DNA of 64,000 nucleotides from an uncultured Verrucomicrobiae bacterium (GCA_963827205.1 CAWHAH010000007.1:66979-130978); one strand, 5' to 3'. Counted from the first letter of the stretch, positions 28,160 through 48,223 are shown. Program-made: numbers and translations. Notes: a model not told the origin generated them from the letters alone.

Positions 28160-28750
28160 ATGGATACACTTGTTTACCTCCTGCTGGGACTGACCTCGGT
28201 GGTCGGGCTGGCGTTCATCGTGGAACGCGCCTTGAGGTTGCGCTGGCAAAAGGTCGTGCCGGCGGAAATCACCGCGTCGCTCGCGGCCTGCAATTCGCGC
28301 GACGACGTGAAAGCCCTCTGCCGCGTGTGCGAACAAAAACCGTCGCCCCTCGGCCGCCTGCTGCTGCTCGCGTCGGATCATCTCGACTGGCCCAAGGACG
28401 AAAACGTGGATGCGTTGCAAACGGCCGCCCGCCACGAAATCGTCCGGCTCGAACGCGGCCTCGTCGTGCTGGAAATCATCGTCGGCATCGCCCCGTTGCT
28501 GGGGTTGGTCGGCACGATCATCGGCATGATGGCGGTGTTCGGCGACATCGGCCAAGCCGGACTCAACGACGCGGCCAAGCTGGCTCACGGCATCGCGTTG
28601 ATTCTGCGGGCCACGCTCATCGGCCTGCTCATTTGCATCCCGTCCCTTATTTTCTGGAGTTACTTCAGCAAAAAAGTCGAGGTGTTCGCCGTCGAGATGG
28701 AGGCGCTTTGCGACGACTTCATCCGGCGGCAATATGCGGAGGCGAAATGA
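28160..28750 (+). CDS. exbB: MotA/TolQ/ExbB proton-channel protein
   Basis: The start is MDTLVYLLLGLTSVVGLAFIVERA, with LLGLVGTIIGMMAVF and IALILRATLIGLLICIPSLIFWSYF. Confidence 0.9.
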   Translation: MDTLVYLLLGLTSVVGLAFIVERALRLRWQKVVPAEITASLAACNSRDDVKALCRVCEQKPSPLGRLLLLASDHLDWPKDENVDALQTAARHEIVRLERGLVVLEIIVGIAPLLGLVGTIIGMMAVFGDIGQAGLNDAAKLAHGIALILRATLIGLLICIPSLIFWSYFSKKVEVFAVEMEALCDDFIRRQYAEAK

Positions 28751-28841: not shown

Positions 28842-29276
28842 ATGCGCTTCCTTGTCCGCAAACGTCGCACCACGCCCGCCGTCATCATCGTCGCGCTGAT
28901 TGACGTGTTGATCGTGCTGGTGATTTTTCTGCTGGTGACGACGACGTTCAAGCAACAGGCGGCGTTGAAGCTCGCGTTGCCCGAATCGTCGCAGGCCAAA
29001 AAGGCCGGAGCGAATGAAAAACCGCCGTTCGTTGTGGACATTGATACAAATGGTCTCTATTCCGTCGAAGTGGGGGGAAAACCACCGCTGCCCGTAACGT
29101 TTGCACAATTCCGGAGCGAATTGATTGTGCAGGCATCAATGCATCCCGATCTCGTGCTGGCTATCCGCGCCGACGAAAAGGCGCCGTGGGGCAAAGTCGT
29201 GAAGGTGCGCGACGCCGCCGCCGAGGCGAAAATCAAATCCCTCGTCGCTTACACCAAGGAACCCGGCAAGCAGTAG
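28842..29276 (+). CDS. exbD: ExbD/TolR biopolymer transport protein
   Basis: The TM helix carries the conserved Asp (PAVIIVALIDVLIVLVIFLL). A periplasmic domain follows, for 144 aa in total. Confidence 0.9.
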   Translation: MRFLVRKRRTTPAVIIVALIDVLIVLVIFLLVTTTFKQQAALKLALPESSQAKKAGANEKPPFVVDIDTNGLYSVEVGGKPPLPVTFAQFRSELIVQASMHPDLVLAIRADEKAPWGKVVKVRDAAAEAKIKSLVAYTKEPGKQ

Positions 29277-38169: not shown

Positions 38170-38445
38170 GCGCCCACGGCGCTGGGGAGTGCGGCAACAT
38201 GTTGCGGCTTTCTTTGACGCGATCCCGCCTCGGCGGGACGTTGAACCAACTGGTCTCGCCGGAATCTGATGAAGGCGGAAGCGCGGACGTGCCTGCCCGC
38301 CAAAGTGAAACGACGGCGGGTCCGCGCACTCCAAATCCGCATTCCGCATTCCGCATGGGCAACTTGTCGCGCCGAAATCAAATGCAGGCGGACGGGAACT
38401 CTTTTCCTGAATTCATTTTGGGATGGACGACGGGGGGCAAGGAGC
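38170..38445. repeat. Mosaic intergenic repeat, copy 1
   Basis: It shares blocks with 39060-39430 and 43000-43185: gagtgcggcaacatgttgcgg, gacgcga...gaaccaactggtc.cgccgga, gcactcc.aa.tccgcatgggcaact and atgcaggcggac. It also has the terminal block ttcc.g.attcattttgggatggacga..gggg just upstream of the next gene. Confidence 0.7.
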
Positions 38446-38478
38446 GTTTGAATGTCTCCACTGCATGAAGGTGAAACC

Positions 38479-38829
38479 ATGAAGCTGCCATTCGCCGACG
38501 AAGCCGATGTTCCACAGGCAAAGATCGTGCTTTATTTGTTGAACCCGGAGCATCGGCGAGGCAAAGGCAAAGCGCGTTTCTTTGCGAGCCGAGGATTCAG
38601 CACGAACAACTGGCAGGTAATGGCTGCTGCGTTGCGGCAACATGCCGCCGAAAATGAAATCGCCAGGGAGGAAACCACGCCACTTGGGGTTCGCCTGGTC
38701 GTGGAAGGCGCGATGGCCATGCCCAACGGCACAGTTGCCGAAATCCGTTCAATATGGTTTATTGAGCATGGCGAACGGACGCCGCGGTTTGTAACCGCTT
38801 ATCCGCTGAAAAAGAAAGAAACTGTATGA
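38479..38829 (+). CDS. DUF6883-like protein (first gene of a two-gene module)
   Basis: MKLPFADEADVPQAKIVLYLLNPEHRRGKGKARFFASRGF resembles the DUF6883 N-terminal signature (YLL..H..G..KA.FF...GF). The stop overlaps the next start (ATGA). The table start at 38452 is an alternative. Confidence 0.6.
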   Translation: MKLPFADEADVPQAKIVLYLLNPEHRRGKGKARFFASRGFSTNNWQVMAAALRQHAAENEIAREETTPLGVRLVVEGAMAMPNGTVAEIRSIWFIEHGERTPRFVTAYPLKKKETV

Positions 38830-39059: not shown

Positions 39060-39430
39060 TGGTTCGCAAAGCGTCTTGGAGGTGTGGTGGCATGACATCG
39101 CTTTCCTCGACGCGACATATCGCGTCGAACCAACTGGTCCCGCCGGAGTCCGACGAAGGTGGAAACAACGGCAGATCAGCGTACTCCGCACTCCGTCCAC
39201 CCTCCGTAGCAGAGCTACTGCGGAGGACGGGCACTCCGAATTCCGCATGGGCAACTCCTCGCGCCGACTCTTCGCACGAAGCTTGGCGATGACGGAAATC
39301 AGACTGGTCGCGCTGAAATCACATGAAAGCGGATGCAGGCGGACTTGTCGCGCACTCCGCAATTCGCAATTCGCAATTCGAAATTGTCATAGCTCTTTTC
39401 CGGTATTCATTTTGGGATGGACGATTGGGG
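39060..39430. repeat. Mosaic intergenic repeat, copy 2 (expanded)
   Basis: It has the same blocks as copy 1, plus ccctccgtagcagagctactgcggaggacggg and a triple aattcgc heptamer. It ends with ttccggtattcattttgggatggacgattgggg. Confidence 0.7.
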
Positions 39431-39942: not shown

Positions 39943-41099
39943 GAGACCTCTGAAAAAGGCCATGTTGGTTGTTTGATTTGATGTCATTGCCCCTGATCAA
40001 CGGAATATTTGTTCGGCGAGACTCCGCCATCGGCGGTTCCATCCCCCACGATCGGCGGTTTTGTCCGCTGGACTGCCGTTCTGAGTTGTTTGATTCATGC
40101 TCCGGTCAAAGTCGCCAGCCGTTTGAGGTTCCAACAGACGCATTTAAACTCCAGTTCCAACCGGTTGGGGTCCCGCCCTACATACCGCACCCGCCGGTAA
40201 CCCGTGCAGCGTTTCCACCAGCCAAAGATTCTTTCGATCCCGCACCGCAGTCGGCTCAACAGCTGGTTGACCCGCACCGTCGCGTCCCGCAGTTTTTCCC
40301 CACGGCTGGGCTTGCGCAAAATCCCGTTGGCGATGCCGTGCTCACCGCACCATTGGCTGCGGGCTTCACTCCAGTAAGCCTTGTCCGCCACCACCATTTC
40401 CTCGTCGCCTTGGACCACCGTTTCAAACTCCCGGCTGTCATGCACGTTGGCGGCCGTCAGCGTGACCTGTCGGATCAGTGTGTGCGTTTCATCCGCCGCG
40501 ACATGTGCTTTGTAGCCATAGTGCGGCTGGCCTCGCTTCACGGTGTAGCCCGCATCGCTATCACCGCCAGCTTTGTCCTCCTTGGTCGGGGCGCGACGAG
40601 CCGCCTGCAACAGCGTCGCGTCCACCAGCGTGCAGGTTTTGAGGAGGAAGCCCTTTTGTTCCAGTTGCCGGTTGACCAGCACCAGCAGCTCTTCCTGCAA
40701 GCCATGTTCGACCAGCCGTTGCCGGAAGCGGACCAGCGTTGTTTCGTCGGGCACCTTGTCCTGCAAACCCAAACCCACAAACCGCCGCCAACTCAACCGG
40801 TCGGCCACCAGTTCCTCGCACTGCGGGTCCGAGAGGCCATAGCAATGTTGCAGCAAACTCATTTTGAAGAGGGCCAGCGGCGGACAGGGTGGGCGTCCGG
40901 TCGTCGCCGGATACATCGCCTGCAATGCCTTTTCGATGGGCTGCCAATCCAGCGTGCGGTCGAGCCGTTCGAGAAAATCGTTGCCAGGAGTCGTGATCAT
41001 CAAGCTGTCCAGCAGCCCCATTTGTGCGTTGGTCGTCGTTTGCATATTCCTCTGACGCACAGTCAAATCGTCCGTTCAAAAGAGTTTTGCAGAGGTCTC
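39943..41099 (-). mobile_element. IS5-family insertion sequence (~1.16 kb)
   Basis: The terminal inverted repeats are GAGACCTCTGAAAAA (39943-39957) and TTTTGCAGAGGTCTC (41085-41099), matching at 14/15 positions. AGCTT occurs directly on both flanks (39938-39942 and 41100-41104). The alternative reading is a 16-bp IR with a 3-bp GCT duplication. The element carries one DDE transposase ORF. Confidence 0.85.
40095..41066 (-). CDS. IS5-family DDE transposase
   Basis: 323 aa. It has GRPPCPPLALFKMSLLQHCYGLSD, TLVDATLL, HYGYKAHV, VVADKAYWS and IERIFGWWKR, a typical IS5/IS4-superfamily DDE layout. Confidence 0.9.
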   Translation of the reverse strand: MTVRQRNMQTTTNAQMGLLDSLMITTPGNDFLERLDRTLDWQPIEKALQAMYPATTGRPPCPPLALFKMSLLQHCYGLSDPQCEELVADRLSWRRFVGLGLQDKVPDETTLVRFRQRLVEHGLQEELLVLVNRQLEQKGFLLKTCTLVDATLLQAARRAPTKEDKAGGDSDAGYTVKRGQPHYGYKAHVAADETHTLIRQVTLTAANVHDSREFETVVQGDEEMVVADKAYWSEARSQWCGEHGIANGILRKPSRGEKLRDATVRVNQLLSRLRCGIERIFGWWKRCTGYRRVRYVGRDPNRLELEFKCVCWNLKRLATLTGA

Positions 41100-41213: not shown

Positions 41214-42902
41214 ATGAAAGCGAAATTGTTCGGCTGGACACTTTTATTTCTGTTGATGCTGCCAATCACTCCATTGTTTGGGCAAGCGCAGGAAACTAAT
41301 CACCCCGCCGATAAATCCAACTCGGTGCAATCAAGTGCGGTGCCGGTTGATGAAGCCACAGCGCAATTCGAGGCAACCAAAGTGAAGGCCGAGACGGGGG
41401 ATGCTCAGGCCCAATACAATCTGGCCGACTGCTACGCCAGTGGCCGAGGCGTGGCGAAGGATAATGTGGAGGCGCTAAAGTGGTATCGCAAAGCCGCCGA
41501 TGGGAACAACGCCGAGGCCCAATTGACTCTGGGCTCTTGCTGCGCCAATGGCTTCGGCGTGGCACAGGATTATGTCCAGGCTTACAAGTGGTTTACCCTC
41601 GCTGCCGCGCAAGGTGAACCATTGGCTAGAGTCGCTCGAAATAACATTGCCCCTTCTATGACGCCTGACCAAATCGCTCAAGGGGAACGGCTTCCGGCTG
41701 AATTTCATCCAAGAAAAGAAACGCCAGGTTCAACTTCTGAGTTCGAAGCAACTAAAGCGAAGGCCGAGACGGGAGATGCTCAAGCCCAATATAATCTGGG
41801 CATCTATTACGACCAAGGCCAAGGCGTCGCGCAGGACCATGCCGAGGCGGTCAAGTTGTATCGGGAAGCAGCAGACCAAGGTTTTGCCGAGGCACAAAAC
41901 GAGCTCGGCTTGTGTTACATCTCGAGTGGAGAAGGTCTAAGCTTGGCGCGGGGCTTTGTTGAGGCGGTGAAATGGTTTCGGGAGGCAGCAAATCAAGGTT
42001 ATGCCGAGGCTCAATGTAATCTTGGCCGTTGCTACCTCTTCGGTCGCGGCGTGTCACAGGATTATGTCCAGGCTTACAAGTGGTTTAATCTCGCTGCGGC
42101 GCAGGGAAACACCAATGCCAGTTTGTTTCTACCTGCTATTGCCTTACGCATGTCTCCAGAAGCTATTACCGAAGCAGAGAGATTATCCAGTGAGTTTAAG
42201 CCAAGCCAGGCAGCAGAGTCAGATTCTACGGTTTCTGGCGGAAAGGCTCCTGCTTCCATGCCAACTGCCAGAGGCACGGGATTTTTCATCACGGACGATG
42301 GTTATTTGATTTCCAATTATCATGTGGTCAAGGATGCGACGAAGGTTCGTTTGCTCACGGGCGCGGGTTTGATTGACGCCAAGGTGGTTCAGGTGGATGC
42401 GGCCAATGATCTGGCTTTGCTCAAAAAGAAGGCAGAGAAGAATGGAGAAGTTTGCAAGCCGCTGCCCATTGCGGCCAGTCGCACGGTGGCTCTGGGCGGC
42501 ACGGTAGCGACGGTCGGTTTTCCCGACATCGGTTTGCAGGGGTTCGCGCCCAAGCTGGCCAAGGGGGAAATCGCATCGCTGTCCGGGGCGGGGGATGACC
42601 CGCGGTATTTTCAAATCAGCGCGCCGGTGCAGCCGGGCAATTCGGGCGGGGCGCTGGTGGATGAGCGGGGCAACGTGATCGGCATCGTGTCGGCCAAGCT
42701 GGATGCGGGGGCGGCGCTGGCGGCGAGCGGGGCGTTGCCGGAGAATGTGAATTACGCGGTCAAGAGCAGTCTGCTGTTGAGCTTCCTGGAATCTGTCCCC
42801 GATGTTTCAGCCAAGCTCAAAGCGCCGGTCACGGCTGACCGGAAGTTTGAGGATGTGGTGAGGTCGGCGCAGGATGCGGCGGTGCTCGTCCTCGTTTATT
42901 GA
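41214..42902 (+). CDS. Secreted Sel1-repeat protein fused to a trypsin-like (S1C/DegP-type) serine protease domain
   Basis: It has a signal peptide and at least six Sel1 repeats (GDAQAQYNLADCYASGRGVAKDNVEALKWYRKAA...). The protease domain has His (LISNYHVV), Asp (ANDLALLK) and Ser (QPGNSGGALV). Confidence 0.85.
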   Translation: MKAKLFGWTLLFLLMLPITPLFGQAQETNHPADKSNSVQSSAVPVDEATAQFEATKVKAETGDAQAQYNLADCYASGRGVAKDNVEALKWYRKAADGNNAEAQLTLGSCCANGFGVAQDYVQAYKWFTLAAAQGEPLARVARNNIAPSMTPDQIAQGERLPAEFHPRKETPGSTSEFEATKAKAETGDAQAQYNLGIYYDQGQGVAQDHAEAVKLYREAADQGFAEAQNELGLCYISSGEGLSLARGFVEAVKWFREAANQGYAEAQCNLGRCYLFGRGVSQDYVQAYKWFNLAAAQGNTNASLFLPAIALRMSPEAITEAERLSSEFKPSQAAESDSTVSGGKAPASMPTARGTGFFITDDGYLISNYHVVKDATKVRLLTGAGLIDAKVVQVDAANDLALLKKKAEKNGEVCKPLPIAASRTVALGGTVATVGFPDIGLQGFAPKLAKGEIASLSGAGDDPRYFQISAPVQPGNSGGALVDERGNVIGIVSAKLDAGAALAASGALPENVNYAVKSSLLLSFLESVPDVSAKLKAPVTADRKFEDVVRSAQDAAVLVLVY

Positions 42903-42999: not shown

Positions 43000-43185
43000 T
43001 GTATTGAACTTGGAGTGCGGCAACATGTTACCGTTTTCCTCGACGCGACATGTCCACCCTCCGCAGTTCTGCTACGGAGGACGGGTCGCGTCGAACCAAA
43101 TCGCGGACATGTCCGCGCAGTCCAAGATTTTCGGCTCGCGAGGACGCTCGCCCTACCGGGCGCCGACATGTCTGCGCACTCCAAA
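43000..43185. repeat. Mosaic intergenic repeat, copy 3
   Basis: It contains gagtgcggcaacatgttaccg, gacgcgacatgtccaccctccgcagttctgctacggaggacggg, gcggacatgtccgc and gcgccgacatgtctgcgcactccaaagg. Confidence 0.65.
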
Positions 43186-43187
43186 GG

Positions 43188-44555
43188 TTACTGCAACCGC
43201 ATCGGCAACTGGAAGATGTTGAAATAAAGTTCCGAAAGGGTTGACCCGGTGTGTTCGCTCCGCACGTCCGGCCCGAATTGCAGGGTCGCCGCGGCGGCGA
43301 AGTTGTGAATCACCAGACAGTAGGTGCTGTTGACCATGATGCCCAGCAATTCGCCGGTACGGCTGAAAACCAGATCGCCGCGCGAAGGATTGAATTTCCC
43401 GAACAACGGGCGCCACAGGCTGTGATCCACTTTGACGTATTGCGGCGTGTTCAAATCAATCTGAAAGTTGCATTCACCGTAAGAACTTTCGTCCGTGGCC
43501 ACCGGCACCGTGTCCTGAAATTTGTAGGGGTCAGACGAAATGCGATAAACCTTGCCGCCGAGCCGGCGGACATCTTCCGGGCTGACCGGCATCATCACCA
43601 CGCGCGGGTCTGCCTTATGAAAGGACAATGAATGAATGGCCACCTGCGCGCCATTGCCGGCCAGTGTGCCGGTGAGCGAGTCCCAATCCGTGCCAGGGTC
43701 CCACAACTTCAGCGGCGTGTCCTGCACGTGGCACAAGGCATAAGTATTGGTGCCATCGGTCACCAGCACCGTTTTGGTTTCCCTGTTGTCGCTTGAATTC
43801 ATGCCTAGAAAGCCGGAACGCGAGGCCAGAATGTTTGCCTCGATCCGGTTGGAAACAAATTGGCTGAAAATGGCGTTCGGCGCCAGGGGCGTGTTCGCGC
43901 GGATTTCCTGGGTCAACTGGCTGGAGTTGGTCGCCAACGATTTGAAGCCCTCTGCCAGTTTGGCATTTTCCGTTCGTTGGGCCTGGACCTCCTGTTGCAT
44001 CAGGGCGGCGCGTTCGGCGGCGGCGCGCTTCTCCGTTTCGGACAACTGGAGTTGCTGGGCCAGTCGCTGTTGCTCGGCCTGGGCCAGCAGGTTGCTCTGG
44101 GTCAATTGATCGAGTTGCCGGCGCAGGGCGGCGGCGAGTTCCGATTGCCGTTGGGCCTCAGCCTGGGTCGCCGCGAGCTTTTGTTGTGACTGCGCGGAAG
44201 TATCCTGCAACTGGCGGTTCAGGCTTTCGAGGTTGGTTTGGGCGGCGGCGAATTGTTGCTGCAATTGCTGGTATTCCTGCTGGCGCGCGTTCAGTTGCGC
44301 CTGCTGCCGGTTCGCGGCTTCGTGCGCCGCCGCGAGCTGCTGCTGCAATTGCACGTGCCCCCGGCGTTCCTCTTCGAGGGCCAGTTTCATGACGGCGGCA
44401 AGGTCCCTGCCGGTGTCCGCCACCTCGTTGGTCGCCACCGTCACGTTGACCGGCGGGCGGGTGTTTTCGTCGGCCATCCGGTTGATGTCCGTCGAGAACG
44501 TCAGCAGGCTCAACAGCAGAAAATCGCAGATGACGATGAGGATGCTGCGGTTCAT
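43188..44555 (-). CDS. ExbD/TolR-like TM anchor + long coiled coil + trypsin-fold C-terminal domain protein
   Basis: 455 aa. The N-terminal TM helix has an embedded Asp (RSILIVICDFLLLSLLTF; compare ExbD in this window, VALIDVLIVLVIFL). A Q/A/L-rich coiled coil of about 170 aa follows. The C-terminal domain aligns by eye to the neighbouring protease: VLVTDGTNTYALCHV vs FFITDDGYLISNYHV, and NPSRGDLVFSRTGELLGIMV vs GNSGGALVDERGNVIGIV. Confidence 0.7.
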   Translation of the reverse strand: MNRSILIVICDFLLLSLLTFSTDINRMADENTRPPVNVTVATNEVADTGRDLAAVMKLALEEERRGHVQLQQQLAAAHEAANRQQAQLNARQQEYQQLQQQFAAAQTNLESLNRQLQDTSAQSQQKLAATQAEAQRQSELAAALRRQLDQLTQSNLLAQAEQQRLAQQLQLSETEKRAAAERAALMQQEVQAQRTENAKLAEGFKSLATNSSQLTQEIRANTPLAPNAIFSQFVSNRIEANILASRSGFLGMNSSDNRETKTVLVTDGTNTYALCHVQDTPLKLWDPGTDWDSLTGTLAGNGAQVAIHSLSFHKADPRVVMMPVSPEDVRRLGGKVYRISSDPYKFQDTVPVATDESSYGECNFQIDLNTPQYVKVDHSLWRPLFGKFNPSRGDLVFSRTGELLGIMVNSTYCLVIHNFAAAATLQFGPDVRSEHTGSTLSELYFNIFQLPMRLQ

Positions 44556-46267
44556 GACGGCAGGACGGGCGTTGGCATGGAAGCCGGGGCACCAGCAGTA
44601 TCAGCGGCGCCGGCTTCGGCTTCGAGCAGCAATTTCCGGCGCGCCGGGCGCAGGTTGAAAATTTTGAAGATGACCACGAAGATGATGCCGAACGACGTGG
44701 AGGAATAGGCCGCCATCAGGCTGAATTTAACCAGCCCCATGGAAAAGATGATGAGCGAAATGATGGTGCCGACGAAGCCGAGATAAAGGCCGGCGTCGAA
44801 CAGATGGTCTTCGTTTTCAAGGAGCTTGAGTTTCATGCGTGGCGGCACCCGTTGCCGGCGGATTTCCGCCAACTTCACGAGGCACGCCATGTACAGCAGC
44901 GCCTGCAGCACGAAAAACACCAGCAACGTCAGTATAATGGTCGGGTTCATAATGGTTTGTTTAATGCCAGCGATTCCGACAGGGACCGCGCCGCCCGCCA
45001 TGGGCAGTTGCAGTCGAAAGGAGAATCCCCCTTTCTGGCTCTCTCGCGCGAGAAACGGCTCGCTCAAGAGCAAGACCACGAGCAGAAAACCCAGCGAAAA
45101 TAAAAACTCACGGACCAGGTGGAATCCGCGCACCTGCAACGGTCGTTCCAAAAAGGATACGGCAGGCCGCGCAAAATGGAAAGCCCCGGCCAGGAAAAAT
45201 CCGCCGAGCAGGTAGCAGAGCCATTTCAGCGTCAGGGCCAGCCACGGCGTTTGAAAAGCACAACCCGCGGCAAAGTAAAAAAACGCTCCGAACGGATCGA
45301 ATGCAGTCACGCGCCGTTCCAGATCCGAATTGAAAAGCCGCTGGCCGCGTTGCGCCAGCTCGCTCACTCCGCCCGCGCCGTCATGCAGGCTCGCGCGCAG
45401 GTCCTCCAGCCCGCTCTGGCTGAATTTGGCGAGATATTTGGCGACCGCGGCGGGTTTGCCCGACAGTTGCACCGCCGCAAACAGCACGGGCAATTGTTCG
45501 CCGGCGTTGCGGACCTGGCCGGCCAGTTGGTGCAGCGTCCCGGTATCCTGAATTTGCGCGACAAACGCCACGAGCTGGTCCCAGTTGAGCCGATCGCCCA
45601 ACGACAGGAAATCCATGAGCACCTGCTCCAGCGGCTCCGAATTGCCGCCGCGGTTGGCCGCCGAAGCCGACAGGAAAATGGCGTCACTCATGCCCGCCGT
45701 CAAATGCCCGCCATCCAGCAACAATCCGCATTCCAACAGCGCCACATCAAAGGCCTGCCCCGAAGCCGATGACGACGGCGGAAAAAGAATGGTGTTGTTC
45801 AAGGCACGCGTTCGCAACAACTCCATCACCACGGAAGATGACGAAACGCGCAGATGGGCCAGGGCCGCCTCGCGGTTTTCCTGATGGATGATGAAATCGG
45901 TGAATGGTTCCGCGCCGGCCTCCGGAGCCTTGGCATTGCCGCCGAAAAGATTTTCCATGGGCGAGTCATCGCCCCACGCCAGCGCGTCCGGATACTGTCG
46001 CGCCTGATTGGTCACCGTCTCGCCGAGCCGGTCCCAGCCGGGAATTCCCGCGGCCCGCGCCGCCCGCATGAGCATTTTGGCCGCGCCCAATTTCTTCGCG
46101 CCCGCCAGGGCCTGTCCTTGCTCAAGCAGAGCGGGACCGTTCCTGCCGGCCTTTTGGATGACGCTGGCGTCCACTGCCCGCAGATACGCGGGTATCAACA
46201 GGCCGCCAACGAGCATCACCAGACCGAGGATGGCACAAATTAAAAAGCCTGGCCATCGGACCTTCAT
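44552..46267 (-). CDS. Polytopic membrane protein with a MotA/ExbB-like C-terminal channel module and a large N-terminal domain
   Basis: 571 aa. The C-terminal helical hairpin LYLGFVGTIISLIIFSMGLVKFSLMAAYSSTSFGIIFVVIFKIFN resembles the MotA/TolQ/ExbB signature (compare LLGLVGTIIGMMAVF...RATLIGLLICIPSLIF in ExbB here). Its stop overlaps the downstream start (ATGA). Confidence 0.7.
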   Translation of the reverse strand: MKVRWPGFLICAILGLVMLVGGLLIPAYLRAVDASVIQKAGRNGPALLEQGQALAGAKKLGAAKMLMRAARAAGIPGWDRLGETVTNQARQYPDALAWGDDSPMENLFGGNAKAPEAGAEPFTDFIIHQENREAALAHLRVSSSSVVMELLRTRALNNTILFPPSSSASGQAFDVALLECGLLLDGGHLTAGMSDAIFLSASAANRGGNSEPLEQVLMDFLSLGDRLNWDQLVAFVAQIQDTGTLHQLAGQVRNAGEQLPVLFAAVQLSGKPAAVAKYLAKFSQSGLEDLRASLHDGAGGVSELAQRGQRLFNSDLERRVTAFDPFGAFFYFAAGCAFQTPWLALTLKWLCYLLGGFFLAGAFHFARPAVSFLERPLQVRGFHLVREFLFSLGFLLVVLLLSEPFLARESQKGGFSFRLQLPMAGGAVPVGIAGIKQTIMNPTIILTLLVFFVLQALLYMACLVKLAEIRRQRVPPRMKLKLLENEDHLFDAGLYLGFVGTIISLIIFSMGLVKFSLMAAYSSTSFGIIFVVIFKIFNLRPARRKLLLEAEAGAADTAGAPASMPTPVLPS

Positions 46268-47713: not shown

Positions 47714-48223
47714 TTAAGCCAGTGGAATGTTCTGGAACAATTGCGTCAGCTCATCGCGATCGAAAGGAGATGCCGTGTCCGGCGTTGTCAAAGAAGTTTG
47801 GTAAGGGGGGCTGTCTTCGCGGAGGAGCGAACCGCGCTGATCCGGAACCATCGTGAGTAGCAGGCGGATGATTTGGGTCGAAAGACGAATCCGATGTTCT
47901 GCGACTCTCTCGCCGAGCACATGACGGCCATCGTAATACCAACCACGGCTCTCGCGTGCTGAACCCAAACCATATTCGTAAAACCGGGCGCGGTCTTTGC
48001 CTGTGCCTCGTGAATAGCCCTCGGCCACGTTCGCTCCAATCGACCTGAGAGCCCGATAAAGCTGATCCGAAAGTCCGAGCGTGCGTTTGTCTTTCATCAA
48101 TTTGCTCACGTCATGCCAGCCCAAGTCCGCAGCGAACAATGCCAGCCGATAAACCTCGACTTTCCAAAGTGAATCGCCCGCTATTTCCACCGGCACCGAC
48201 TTTAACCATTCATCATAACTCAT
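47714..48223 (-). CDS. Four-helix-bundle protein (23S rRNA intervening-sequence protein family)
   Basis: 169 aa. The segments YRLALFAADLGWHDVSKL, DQLYRALRSIGANVAEGYSRGTGKDRARFYEYGLGSARESRGWY are typical of the TIGR02436/PF05635 family. It is inserted between two MacB-type permease genes. Confidence 0.85.
   Translation of the reverse strand: MSYDEWLKSVPVEIAGDSLWKVEVYRLALFAADLGWHDVSKLMKDKRTLGLSDQLYRALRSIGANVAEGYSRGTGKDRARFYEYGLGSARESRGWYYDGRHVLGERVAEHRIRLSTQIIRLLLTMVPDQRGSLLREDSPPYQTSLTTPDTASPFDRDELTQLFQNIPLA

Follow-up and report, generated by a model that had tools for sequence, protein, structure and literature searches.

Introduction

What is encoded by two overlapping genes of an uncultured Verrucomicrobiae bacterium, whose membrane-spanning parts recall ion-driven motors and whose products are annotated in every relative as hypothetical proteins? 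The genes lie on the minus strand at positions 43188-46267 of a 64,000-nucleotide stretch of DNA (GCA_963827205.1, CAWHAH010000007.1:66979-130978), the whole of which is called the window below. They encode proteins of 571 and 455 amino acids (aa), designated here gene 1 and gene 2. An initial annotation, made by eye, had compared them with the channel and anchor subunits of stator-type motors and had ascribed to gene 2 a coiled coil and a trypsin-like domain.

To our knowledge, few families of 5:2 ion-driven motors have been recognised so far (Mot/Pom, Exb, Tol, Agl, GldLM/PorLM, and Zorya), and each addition to them showed a different coupling of the proton gradient to extracytoplasmic work. 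We suggest that the pair is probably, though by no means certainly, a very divergent member or a close analogue of the ion-driven 5:2 stator-type motors (MotAB, ExbBD, TolQR, ZorAB, GldLM), in which gene 1 would be the A (channel or rotor-ring) subunit and gene 2 the B (anchor or axle) subunit.

A coupled gene pair of the Verrucomicrobiota

Both open reading frames (ORFs), their overlap and the peptides quoted in the initial annotation agree with the window sequence. The stop codon of gene 1 and the start codon of gene 2 share an ATGA, forming a 4-nt overlap at 44552-44555 (CCG TCA TGA over ATG AAC CGC). In a database clustered at 90% identity, there are 1,425 homologs of gene 1 and 2,266 of gene 2, all of them annotated as hypothetical. 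An exhaustive search with residues 440-556 of gene 1 gave 446 clusters at 50% identity, 312 of them at E<=1e-10, and the same architecture of ~540-600 aa recurs in all 150 family matches listed. With over 1,000 strongly constrained homologs each, neither gene can be a chance ORF. The relatives are encoded in at least 558 species-representative genomes and at least 554 metagenome contigs from soil, peat, marine and freshwater sites, compost, and bioreactors; all named sources belong to the Verrucomicrobiota (Limisphaerales or Pedosphaera-type, Opitutales, and others).

The supposition that the two genes form a conserved, translationally coupled pair and co-occur outside the source genome is borne out by these relatives. 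A gene 2 homolog directly follows gene 1 in 79 of the 80 genomic loci sampled, the sole exception being a contig that ends 78 bp past gene 1, and was recovered downstream in 76 of 80 divergent metagenomic loci, which gives 155/160 in total. The ATGA overlap is kept in 64 of 74 orthologous pairs, and the remaining pairs are mostly spaced within 6 nt. The pair thus behaves like a core, phylum-wide gene pair. On one metagenome contig, gene 1 and gene 2 appear as a single fused ORF of 776 aa (P0074: ...LLLEAEARRDP...IIMNRSILIVICDFLL...); this is probably a frameshift or an assembly artefact at the ATGA overlap, although it may be a real fusion.

The C-terminal hairpin of gene 1

Ahead of the hairpin LYLGFVGTIISLII...LMAAYSSTSFGIIFVVIFKIF, gene 1 has ~490 residues that contain a ~300-aa helical domain and four TM (transmembrane) helices, in accord with the extra helices proposed initially. 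The hairpin, modelled by AlphaFold2 (AF2) as two long helices (476-509 and 517-556), has the pattern GLY-x-G-x-x-G-T(501) ... AY-S-S-T(524)-x-F-G ... K535, with G-x-x-G-T in the penultimate helix and T-x-x-G in the last one. It runs in-out-in and ends in a positively charged C-terminal tail, an orientation that matches MotA/ExbB. The family consensus GLYvGLgGTV.SLI...AY.ST.FGI can be compared with PYIGLFGTVWGIM...ALIATAIGL of TolQ/ExbB, for which the hairpin consensus is PYIGLFGTV...A.ATAIGL. Across 72 divergent members with overall identities of 22-40%, no variation occurs at E403, F451, Q455, N485, E486, F490, L494, G497, G500, Y521, S523, F526, G527, K535, and R540; of these, N485, E486, and F490 belong to the linker that precedes the hairpin. 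T501 and T524 are at least 90% conserved in the same set.

This likeness was assessed by profile alignment with hhalign, for which the broad core comprised the E. coli and Acinetobacter TolQ, the E. coli and window ExbB, and four MotA sequences. The same register was chosen in every run, and the signal rises as both profiles diversify. Close homologs against a narrow ExbB/TolQ profile gave P=0.003-0.02 (probability 3-10%), with a signal at P ~0.003 that covered 17 columns; the diverse family against the broad core gave P=1.5e-4 (51%) over 37 columns covering both helices, and the hairpin alone gave P=4.6e-5 (69%), again over 37 columns. When profiles were separated, the hairpin matched the MotA-only profile at P=7e-4 (41 columns) and, independently, the ExbB/TolQ-only profile at P=2e-3. 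Shuffled templates never reached the observed score (0/200 for column shuffles, 0/200 for local shuffles, 0/200 for the broader core): their means were 11-12, with standard deviations of 2.2-2.6, versus observed scores of 23.6 and 29.1, while the reversed template scored 10.5 versus 23.6. Other parts of gene 1 (TM1, TM2-4, and the periplasmic domain) gave P=0.3, 0.77, and 0.8 against the core. A MacB/FtsX alignment gave P=0.07 against the core, and the hairpin against MacB gave P=0.2-0.3.

The MotA/TolQ/ExbB-like character ascribed to the hairpin therefore stands in the sense that it exceeds composition and unrelated TM proteins, but it finds no counterpart in Pfam, PDB or Foldseek matches. 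Remote homology or a close mechanistic analogy of this hairpin to MotA/TolQ/ExbB is plausible but unproven, and so is the membership of gene 1 in the MotA/ExbB family, because both the Pfam and the fold searches fail.

The membrane helix of gene 2

The N-terminus of gene 2, MNRSILIVICDFLLLSLLTF in the window protein, corresponds to the consensus MN(K/R)(S/T)(L/I)L(L/I)xx(C/V/S/I)DF(L/M)(L/F)L, the most conserved part of the protein. The membrane-embedded Asp, noted at the outset as a hallmark of the ExbD/TolR/MotB type, is indeed conserved: Asp11-Phe12 is invariant in 120/120 close homologs, 72/72 species-level orthologs, and 64/64 divergent orthologs, including pairs in which gene 1 is only 22-30% identical to that of the window. 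Gene 2 thus has the traits of a B subunit, namely a lone N-in TM helix, an Asp near its cytoplasmic side, and a gene placed directly after that of the A subunit. Its TM segment aligns with ExbD Asp-on-Asp over 12 columns, which is non-significant alone (hhalign P=0.027; 9/150 shuffles reach the score).

Judging from helix positions, Asp11 would lie ~7-8 residues from the cytoplasmic end, at the depth of Thr501 in gene 1, and Thr524 would lie ~8 residues from the periplasmic end. This geometry would be the same as that of T145/T178 in TolQ and the Asp of TolR.

Topology and the periplasmic parts

Distribution of Lys and Arg (K+R, means over 115 family members) supports a gene 1 topology with six TM helices, N-in/C-in. 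Mean counts are 4.4 in the C-terminal tail (~18 aa), 4.2 in the TM4-5 loop (~26 aa), and 2.3 in the TM2-3 loop (~20 aa), all predicted to be cytoplasmic; the TM3-4 loop (~35 aa) has 2.5, is net negative, and would be periplasmic. Because of these positive-inside counts, the ~300-aa all-alpha domain is placed in the periplasm. In the AF2 model of gene 1 (mean pLDDT, the predicted local distance difference test, 72) this domain is confidently built over residues ~45-310 (pLDDT ~90), and it has no known structural relative in Foldseek or PDB profile searches. E403-P404, Q455, and K535 are invariant, lie within TM3, TM4, and TM6 or at their edges, and are not paralleled in MotA/ExbB/TolQ. K535 might form a pair with Asp11 of gene 2 or contribute to the gating of an ion path.

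The stalk of gene 2 is a coiled coil, as was initially proposed: AF2 gives one continuous helix at 52-187 followed by helices within 203-235, and alignment-averaged hydrophobicity has coiled-coil harmonics at periods of ~7.2-7.5, 3.5, and 2.3. Between the TM helix and the head lie a linker of ~30 aa and the stalk, which together measure 207 to 297 aa, depending on the family member. Close homologs fall into protein-length classes of 444, 455, 458, and 465 aa, with indels of 3, 4, 7 or 11 residues; since these are approximately whole helical turns, they suggest selection on the coiled-coil phase, the length being free to vary. At ~0.15 nm per residue, the stalk would extend ~20-27 nm, enough to span the periplasm.

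The C-terminal domain of gene 2 has a trypsin/HtrA fold, which agrees with the initial proposal. The AF2 model matches Deg2, DegS, DegQ, and HtrA1 in the PDB (Foldseek E=3.5e-6 to 1e-3, probability 1.0) with a TM-score of ~0.5 for targets of ~200 residues. By contrast, hhalign against DegP, DegQ, DegS and the neighbouring protease of the window gave no profile signal (P=0.15, mis-registered), and the Pfam trypsin match that had been expected is absent. In the AF2 secondary structure, H276 ends beta3, D316 precedes beta6, and S391 precedes the LVF and LLGIMV strands, after which a C-terminal helix follows. H276, D316, and S391 would accordingly occupy the canonical His57, Asp102, and Ser195 positions in the model, a mapping that rests on secondary-structure topology and not on alignment, because the HtrA alignment is non-significant and mis-registered. 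Where the oxyanion-hole motif GDSGG/GNSGG is expected, the domain has N-P-S-R-G-D.

Conservation of these residues depends on the breadth of the sample (Table 1). The proposed His/Asp/Ser triad is kept in the clade of the window, but the Ser and, to a lesser extent, the His are not maintained in divergent orthologs. Therefore, the family constraint concerns the fold and the D-x-R / G-D surface and not the Ser nucleophile. Since Ser occurs in only 38/64 divergent orthologs, proteolysis is unlikely as the conserved function of the family; proteolytic activity may be retained in the window's clade, where His, Asp, and Ser are all kept.

Table 1. Retention of selected residues in the head domain of gene 2
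Residue	Close homologs	Species-level orthologs	Divergent orthologs
H276	113/121 (6 Asp, 2 Tyr)	71/72	56/64
D316	121/121	72/72	63/64
R318	121/121	72/72	64/64
S391	120/121	68/72 (4 Thr)	38/64 (K 9, T 8, H 3, R 2, A 2, G 1, V 1)
G393	121/121	72/72	62/64
D394	121/121	72/72	63/64

Motor, tether or protease

Starting from the gene coupling, the conservation, the topology, the coiled coil, and the head fold, one can suggest how the pair would work as a motor. Within the inner membrane, two N-terminal helices of gene 2 would form a dimer enclosed by several copies of gene 1, in a stoichiometry presumed from related machines. A proton path would run between the gene 1 hairpin (Thr501, Thr524) and Asp11 of gene 2, and cycling of protonation would, by analogy, shift the ring relative to the axle. 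Output would go to the periplasm, where the topology and the coiled coil place nearly all of the extramembrane mass. The gene 2 dimer would form a coiled-coil shaft across this compartment, the ~300-aa domain of gene 1 a collar around it, and the trypsin-fold double beta-barrel the tip. This head would bind, and in some clades perhaps cleave, a partner in the envelope. It is most likely a ligand- or peptide-binding module engaging such a partner, because the Ser position varies while D316-x-R318 and G393-D394 are invariant. The motor would thereby pass the energy of the proton motive force (PMF) to the outer envelope, like Ton, Tol, and GldLM.

A more specific proposal, whose chances as a whole we consider evenly balanced, is that the pair represents a phylum-wide Verrucomicrobiota family of 5:2-type motors with an inverted layout: the large domain of the ring subunit would be periplasmic instead of cytoplasmic, and the axle would be a periplasm-spanning shaft with a head. 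As parts of the same proposal, the trypsin-fold head would be catalytic in some clades and degenerate in others, and the two proteins, needing no further component, would do the work of Ton/Tol or GldLM by delivering PMF energy, possibly as rotation, to a target at the peptidoglycan or the outer membrane.

Several observations weigh against a motor. The hhalign probability of the hairpin is only 51-69% and concerns just 37 columns, while the positive control, MotA against ExbB/TolQ, gave 96% and P=1e-9, so the gene 1 family is far more distant from the known branches than these are from one another. Nor is this alignment independent of the observation that it supports, because the likeness had already been seen by eye. 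Foldseek with the gene 1 monomer found ExbB only in the noise (5sv0_B, E=1.6; 9ddo_E, E=4.6), the TM region of that AF2 model having low confidence (pLDDT 50-67). The last helix, FGIIFVVIFKIF, lacks the Pro conserved in MotA, ExbB, and TolQ, and gene 1 is without the large cytoplasmic domain typical of A subunits, its cytoplasmic loops being only ~20 and 26 residues long. In the P0496 clade (loci L170, 10001-12425, and L171), gene 1 with an intact hairpin has no gene 2 homolog within 10 kb; it overlaps by 14 nt an LpxA-like acyltransferase gene (Hexapep + Acetyltransf_11), which is followed by pdxA. This cluster has 36 near-identical members on many contigs and thus represents a frequently sequenced organism.

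Searches of curated collections point in the same direction. Neither protein has a MotA_ExbB, ExbD, MotB, GldL/M, ZorA/B or trypsin match in Pfam, NCBIfam or PADLOC; in particular, NCBIfam gave no TolQ, ExbB, MotA or GldL match and PADLOC no ZorA/ZorB match. The MotA_ExbB match foreseen for gene 1 did not appear: PF01618 is not matched at E<=1, and in the 72 divergent members no Pfam MotA_ExbB, ExbD or MotB match occurs at E<=10, the weak matches to DUF2231 and Vpu being TM noise. Gene 2 matches none of the ExbD (PF02472), MotB_plug or OmpA hidden Markov models (HMMs) and has no periplasmic domain of such a type; its sole matches in the HMM libraries are SMC/JetC-type coiled-coil noise at residues ~55-220. 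PDB-sequence profile searches with gene 1 profiles yielded no ExbB, MotA or TolQ, and the Vipp1/PspA matches on the gene 2 stalk reflect coiled-coil bias. In a search of representative sequences with the hairpin region, the best 150 matches are all family members, so none of them bridges the hairpin to other families, although their greater diversity sharpened the profile. That these tools do recognise ordinary members is evident from the window's own ExbB and ExbD, which are easily identified as bona fide members of their families (ExbD HMM E=5.6e-22); this also upholds the initial identification of this ExbB. In the literature we found no description of the family, including a 2025 survey of MotAB homologs, which was based on detectable homologs and does not have the family among them.

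These failures would be expected if the pair were a static envelope tether or scaffold without ion-driven movement, an explanation that, taken as a whole, we hold to be unlikely though credible. Gene 2 would then be a periplasm-spanning coiled coil with a pseudo-protease head, gene 1 an unrelated polytopic holder, and Asp11 no more than a contact for assembly, such as a salt bridge with Lys535 in TM6; the likeness to MotA/ExbB would be convergent or coincidental. Such a tether is favoured by the failure of every HMM- and fold-level test of MotA/ExbB membership, by the missing cytoplasmic domain, and by the invariant K535 (last TM helix), E403, and Q455, which could pair with Asp11 and are foreign to MotA/ExbB. 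The stalk length steps of 3, 4, 7, and 11 residues keep the helical phase, which would matter for a strut of fixed orientation. However, the hairpin likeness is specific, in register, and extends over both helices, and neither shuffles nor other TM segments of gene 1 nor MacB reproduce it. An invariant near-cytoplasmic Asp in a lone N-terminal TM helix, together with an upstream protein bearing a G-x-x-G-T / T-x-x-G hairpin, is the signature of stators, and K535 appears to lie near the cytoplasmic interface and not at the depth of Asp11.

The HtrA/DegS fold of the head and the topological positions of H276, D316, and S391, which the window's clade conserves almost completely, would also suit an active membrane-tethered HtrA-like serine protease. 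Gene 1 would then be a membrane regulator or substrate-delivery partner, and the complex would serve quality control or processing of periplasmic or outer-membrane proteins, with catalysis by these three residues. Taken as a whole, this explanation is in our view quite improbable: the catalytic Ser and His drift in divergent orthologs while D316, R318, G393, and D394 are nearly invariant, the His is replaced by Asp or Tyr already in 8/121 close homologs, the GDSGG/GNSGG motif has given way to N-P-S-R-G-D, no Trypsin/Trypsin_2 HMM (PF00089, PF13365) matches, the HtrA profiles do not align significantly, and both the invariant TM Asp and the hairpin are left unexplained. That the resemblances arose by chance in two unrelated hypothetical membrane proteins without a joint function is extremely improbable. 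Although no curated family recognises either protein, their adjacency in 155/160 loci and the 4-nt overlap in 64/74 pairs speak otherwise, and the TM segments of both are near-invariant across the phylum at gene 1 identities down to 22%; conservation and synteny have effectively refuted this explanation.

If the interpretation as a motor is true, the pair is a new motor family, invisible to current HMM libraries and present in hundreds of Verrucomicrobiota species. Among machines of a known kind it would form a very divergent branch, and its output architecture would be without precedent: a periplasmic ring domain, a coiled-coil shaft, and a protease-fold head. It would also offer a testable candidate for how Verrucomicrobiota energise an envelope process, and its trypsin-fold domain would exemplify a natural drift between catalytic and non-catalytic states while the mechanical scaffold is conserved. 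Should this interpretation fail, the pair remains a large envelope module, found phylum-wide under strong constraint and without any annotation, that merits definition as a family.

Genomic surroundings

The features of the pair and of its surroundings are collected in Table 2. A systematic search over 161 loci found no recurrent third gene. The commonest neighbour is a divergently transcribed peptide deformylase gene (49/161 loci), and its recurrence, like that of other housekeeping genes, is local synteny. Neither ZorC/ZorD-like neighbours nor a defence-island context were found in these loci, and PADLOC ZorA/ZorB models are unmatched save for coiled-coil noise. A role in anti-phage defence is ruled out by the lack of a PADLOC match and of an island context and by the core-like, phylum-wide distribution. 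In the region of the pair, terminator-like sites, including the one past gene 2, are not more numerous than expected from shuffles.

The same strand carries, upstream of the pair, two genes of MacB-type permeases, one of a 23S rRNA intervening-sequence-family protein, and one of an ABC ATPase. As a general functional partner, this MacB/ABC operon is ruled out by its presence in only 13-14 of 80 loci. The intervening-sequence gene stands between the two MacB genes of the efflux operon, also in an 86%-identical relative (L001, 3605-4114). At 6494-9861 of L001, the closest complete-genome relative, two more unannotated genes, of 690 and 432 aa, lie between the MacB operon and the pair; they have no Pfam match and are absent from the window.

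The convergent downstream neighbour, reported initially as a Sel1-repeat/trypsin-like protease, is real: Pfam recognises five Sel1 repeats and a Trypsin_2 domain, and the GNSGG motif marks it as a genuine HtrA-like enzyme. The suggested synteny with the pair was not borne out. As a third component it is ruled out, and its placement beside the pair is coincidental, because it occurs near the pair in only 1/80 related genomes. In the window it is flanked by an IS5-type transposase gene and repeated intergenic elements of ~250 nt, two fuller copies ~0.9 kb apart, with a DUF6883 protein gene between them, and a partial copy just downstream of the protease gene. Because the repeat copies bracket the region, the block of insertion sequence (IS) and Sel1-protease may have been inserted or rearranged.

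Table 2. Positions of the gene pair, its parts, and neighbouring features in the window
Feature	Position	Strand	Remarks
Gene 1	44552..46267	-	571 aa; candidate A subunit, polytopic inner-membrane protein; ORF and homologs
Gene 1 TM1 (residues ~5-28)	46184..46255	-	N-in signal anchor; AF2 helix 4-42; K2/R4 precede the hydrophobic stretch; family charge distribution
Gene 1 all-alpha domain (residues ~30-335)	45263..46180	-	AF2 pLDDT ~90, all helical; predicted periplasmic
Gene 1 TM2-TM4 (residues ~341-466)	44870..45247	-	AF2 helices 341-365, 384-406, 442-471; invariant E403-P404, F451, Q455
E403-P404 codons	~45056-45061	-	TM3
Q455 codon	~44903-44905	-	TM4
Gene 1 cytoplasmic linker (residues 467-492)	44792..44869	-	near-invariant acidic motif LLENE(D/E)xLFDxG
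Gene 1 C-terminal TM hairpin (residues 493-538)	44654..44791	-	MotA/TolQ/ExbB-like pore hairpin, putative; motif conservation and hhalign
K535 codon	~44663-44665	-	TM6
Gene 2	43188..44555	-	455 aa; candidate B subunit, bitopic N-in/C-out; ORF and homologs
Gene 2 TM helix (residues 4-21)	44493..44546	-	invariant Asp11-Phe12, Asp codon 44523-44525; ortholog conservation
Gene 2 coiled-coil stalk (residues ~52-235)	43851..44402	-	Q/A/L-rich; AF2 helices and heptad harmonics
Gene 2 C-terminal double beta-barrel (residues ~236-455)	43191..43850	-	AF2 pLDDT 75-92; Foldseek; H276, D316-P-R, N-P-S391-R-G-D
Terminator-like hairpin	43102..43117	-	~70 nt past the gene 2 stop; consensus match only
ExbB gene	28160-28750		bona fide family member
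ExbD gene	28842-29276		bona fide family member
Repeated intergenic element	38186-38440		fuller copy
DUF6883 protein gene	38452-38829	+	
Repeated intergenic element	39079-39430		fuller copy
IS5-type transposase gene	40095-41066	-	DDE_Tnp_1 + DUF772, E=1.6e-26; directly upstream of the Sel1-protease gene
Sel1(x5)/Trypsin_2 protein gene	41214-42902	+	convergent with the pair
Repeated intergenic element	43012-43081		partial copy; segments 86% and 77% identical
23S-rRNA-intervening-sequence-family gene	47714-48223	-	four-helix bundle

Comparison with known systems

ExbB-ExbD/TolQ-TolR (PF01618 + PF02472) share with the pair the A-then-B gene order, translational coupling, and output into the periplasm. 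Like gene 1, ExbB/TolQ have a TM hairpin with G-x-x-G-T-V followed by (A/S)-T-x-x-G and a basic cytoplasmic tail; like gene 2, ExbD/TolR are N-in bitopic proteins with a lone TM helix bearing an Asp near the cytoplasmic side, which is essential in ExbD/TolR. Unlike ExbB/TolQ, gene 1 appears to cross the membrane with six TM helices instead of three and to have a domain of ~300 aa in the periplasm with hardly any in the cytoplasm, its last helix lacks both the conserved Pro and the TolQ/ExbB Glu, and HMM and fold searches do not match it. While ExbD has a small domain and works via a separate TonB or TolA, gene 2 itself carries the coiled coil, which would be long enough to span the periplasm, and the trypsin-fold head.

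With MotA-MotB/PomA-PomB, the pair shares the gene order and overlap, the hairpin matches the MotA-only profile, and the A-D-F motif of MotB can be compared with C-D-F of gene 2. The cytoplasmic torque interface, the plug, the OmpA-like peptidoglycan-binding domain, and the flagellar gene context of MotAB/PomAB are absent from the pair.

GldL-GldM/PorL-PorM share with the proposed motor the concept of a dimeric axle that reaches through the periplasm as a long, rigid shaft and carries motion or energy from a 5:2 motor of the inner membrane to the outer membrane. However, the GldM shaft consists of globular domains and not of a coiled coil, contains no protease fold, and the key acidic residue is on GldL. 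ZorA-ZorB resemble the proposed motor in being a divergent, non-flagellar type of 5:2 machine to which a very long coiled coil is appended; in Zorya, this tail belongs to ZorA and is cytoplasmic, and ZorB binds peptidoglycan.

The gene 2 head has in common with HtrA/DegP/DegS (Trypsin_2) the double beta-barrel, the C-terminal helix, and the topological positions of His, Asp, and Ser. It differs from that family by the lack of a PDZ domain, by NPSRGD in place of GNSGG, by a Ser that is not conserved across the family, and by its connection to a stalk and an Asp-bearing TM helix. Unlike in all characterised stator relatives, the extramembrane mass of the pair appears to be nearly all periplasmic.

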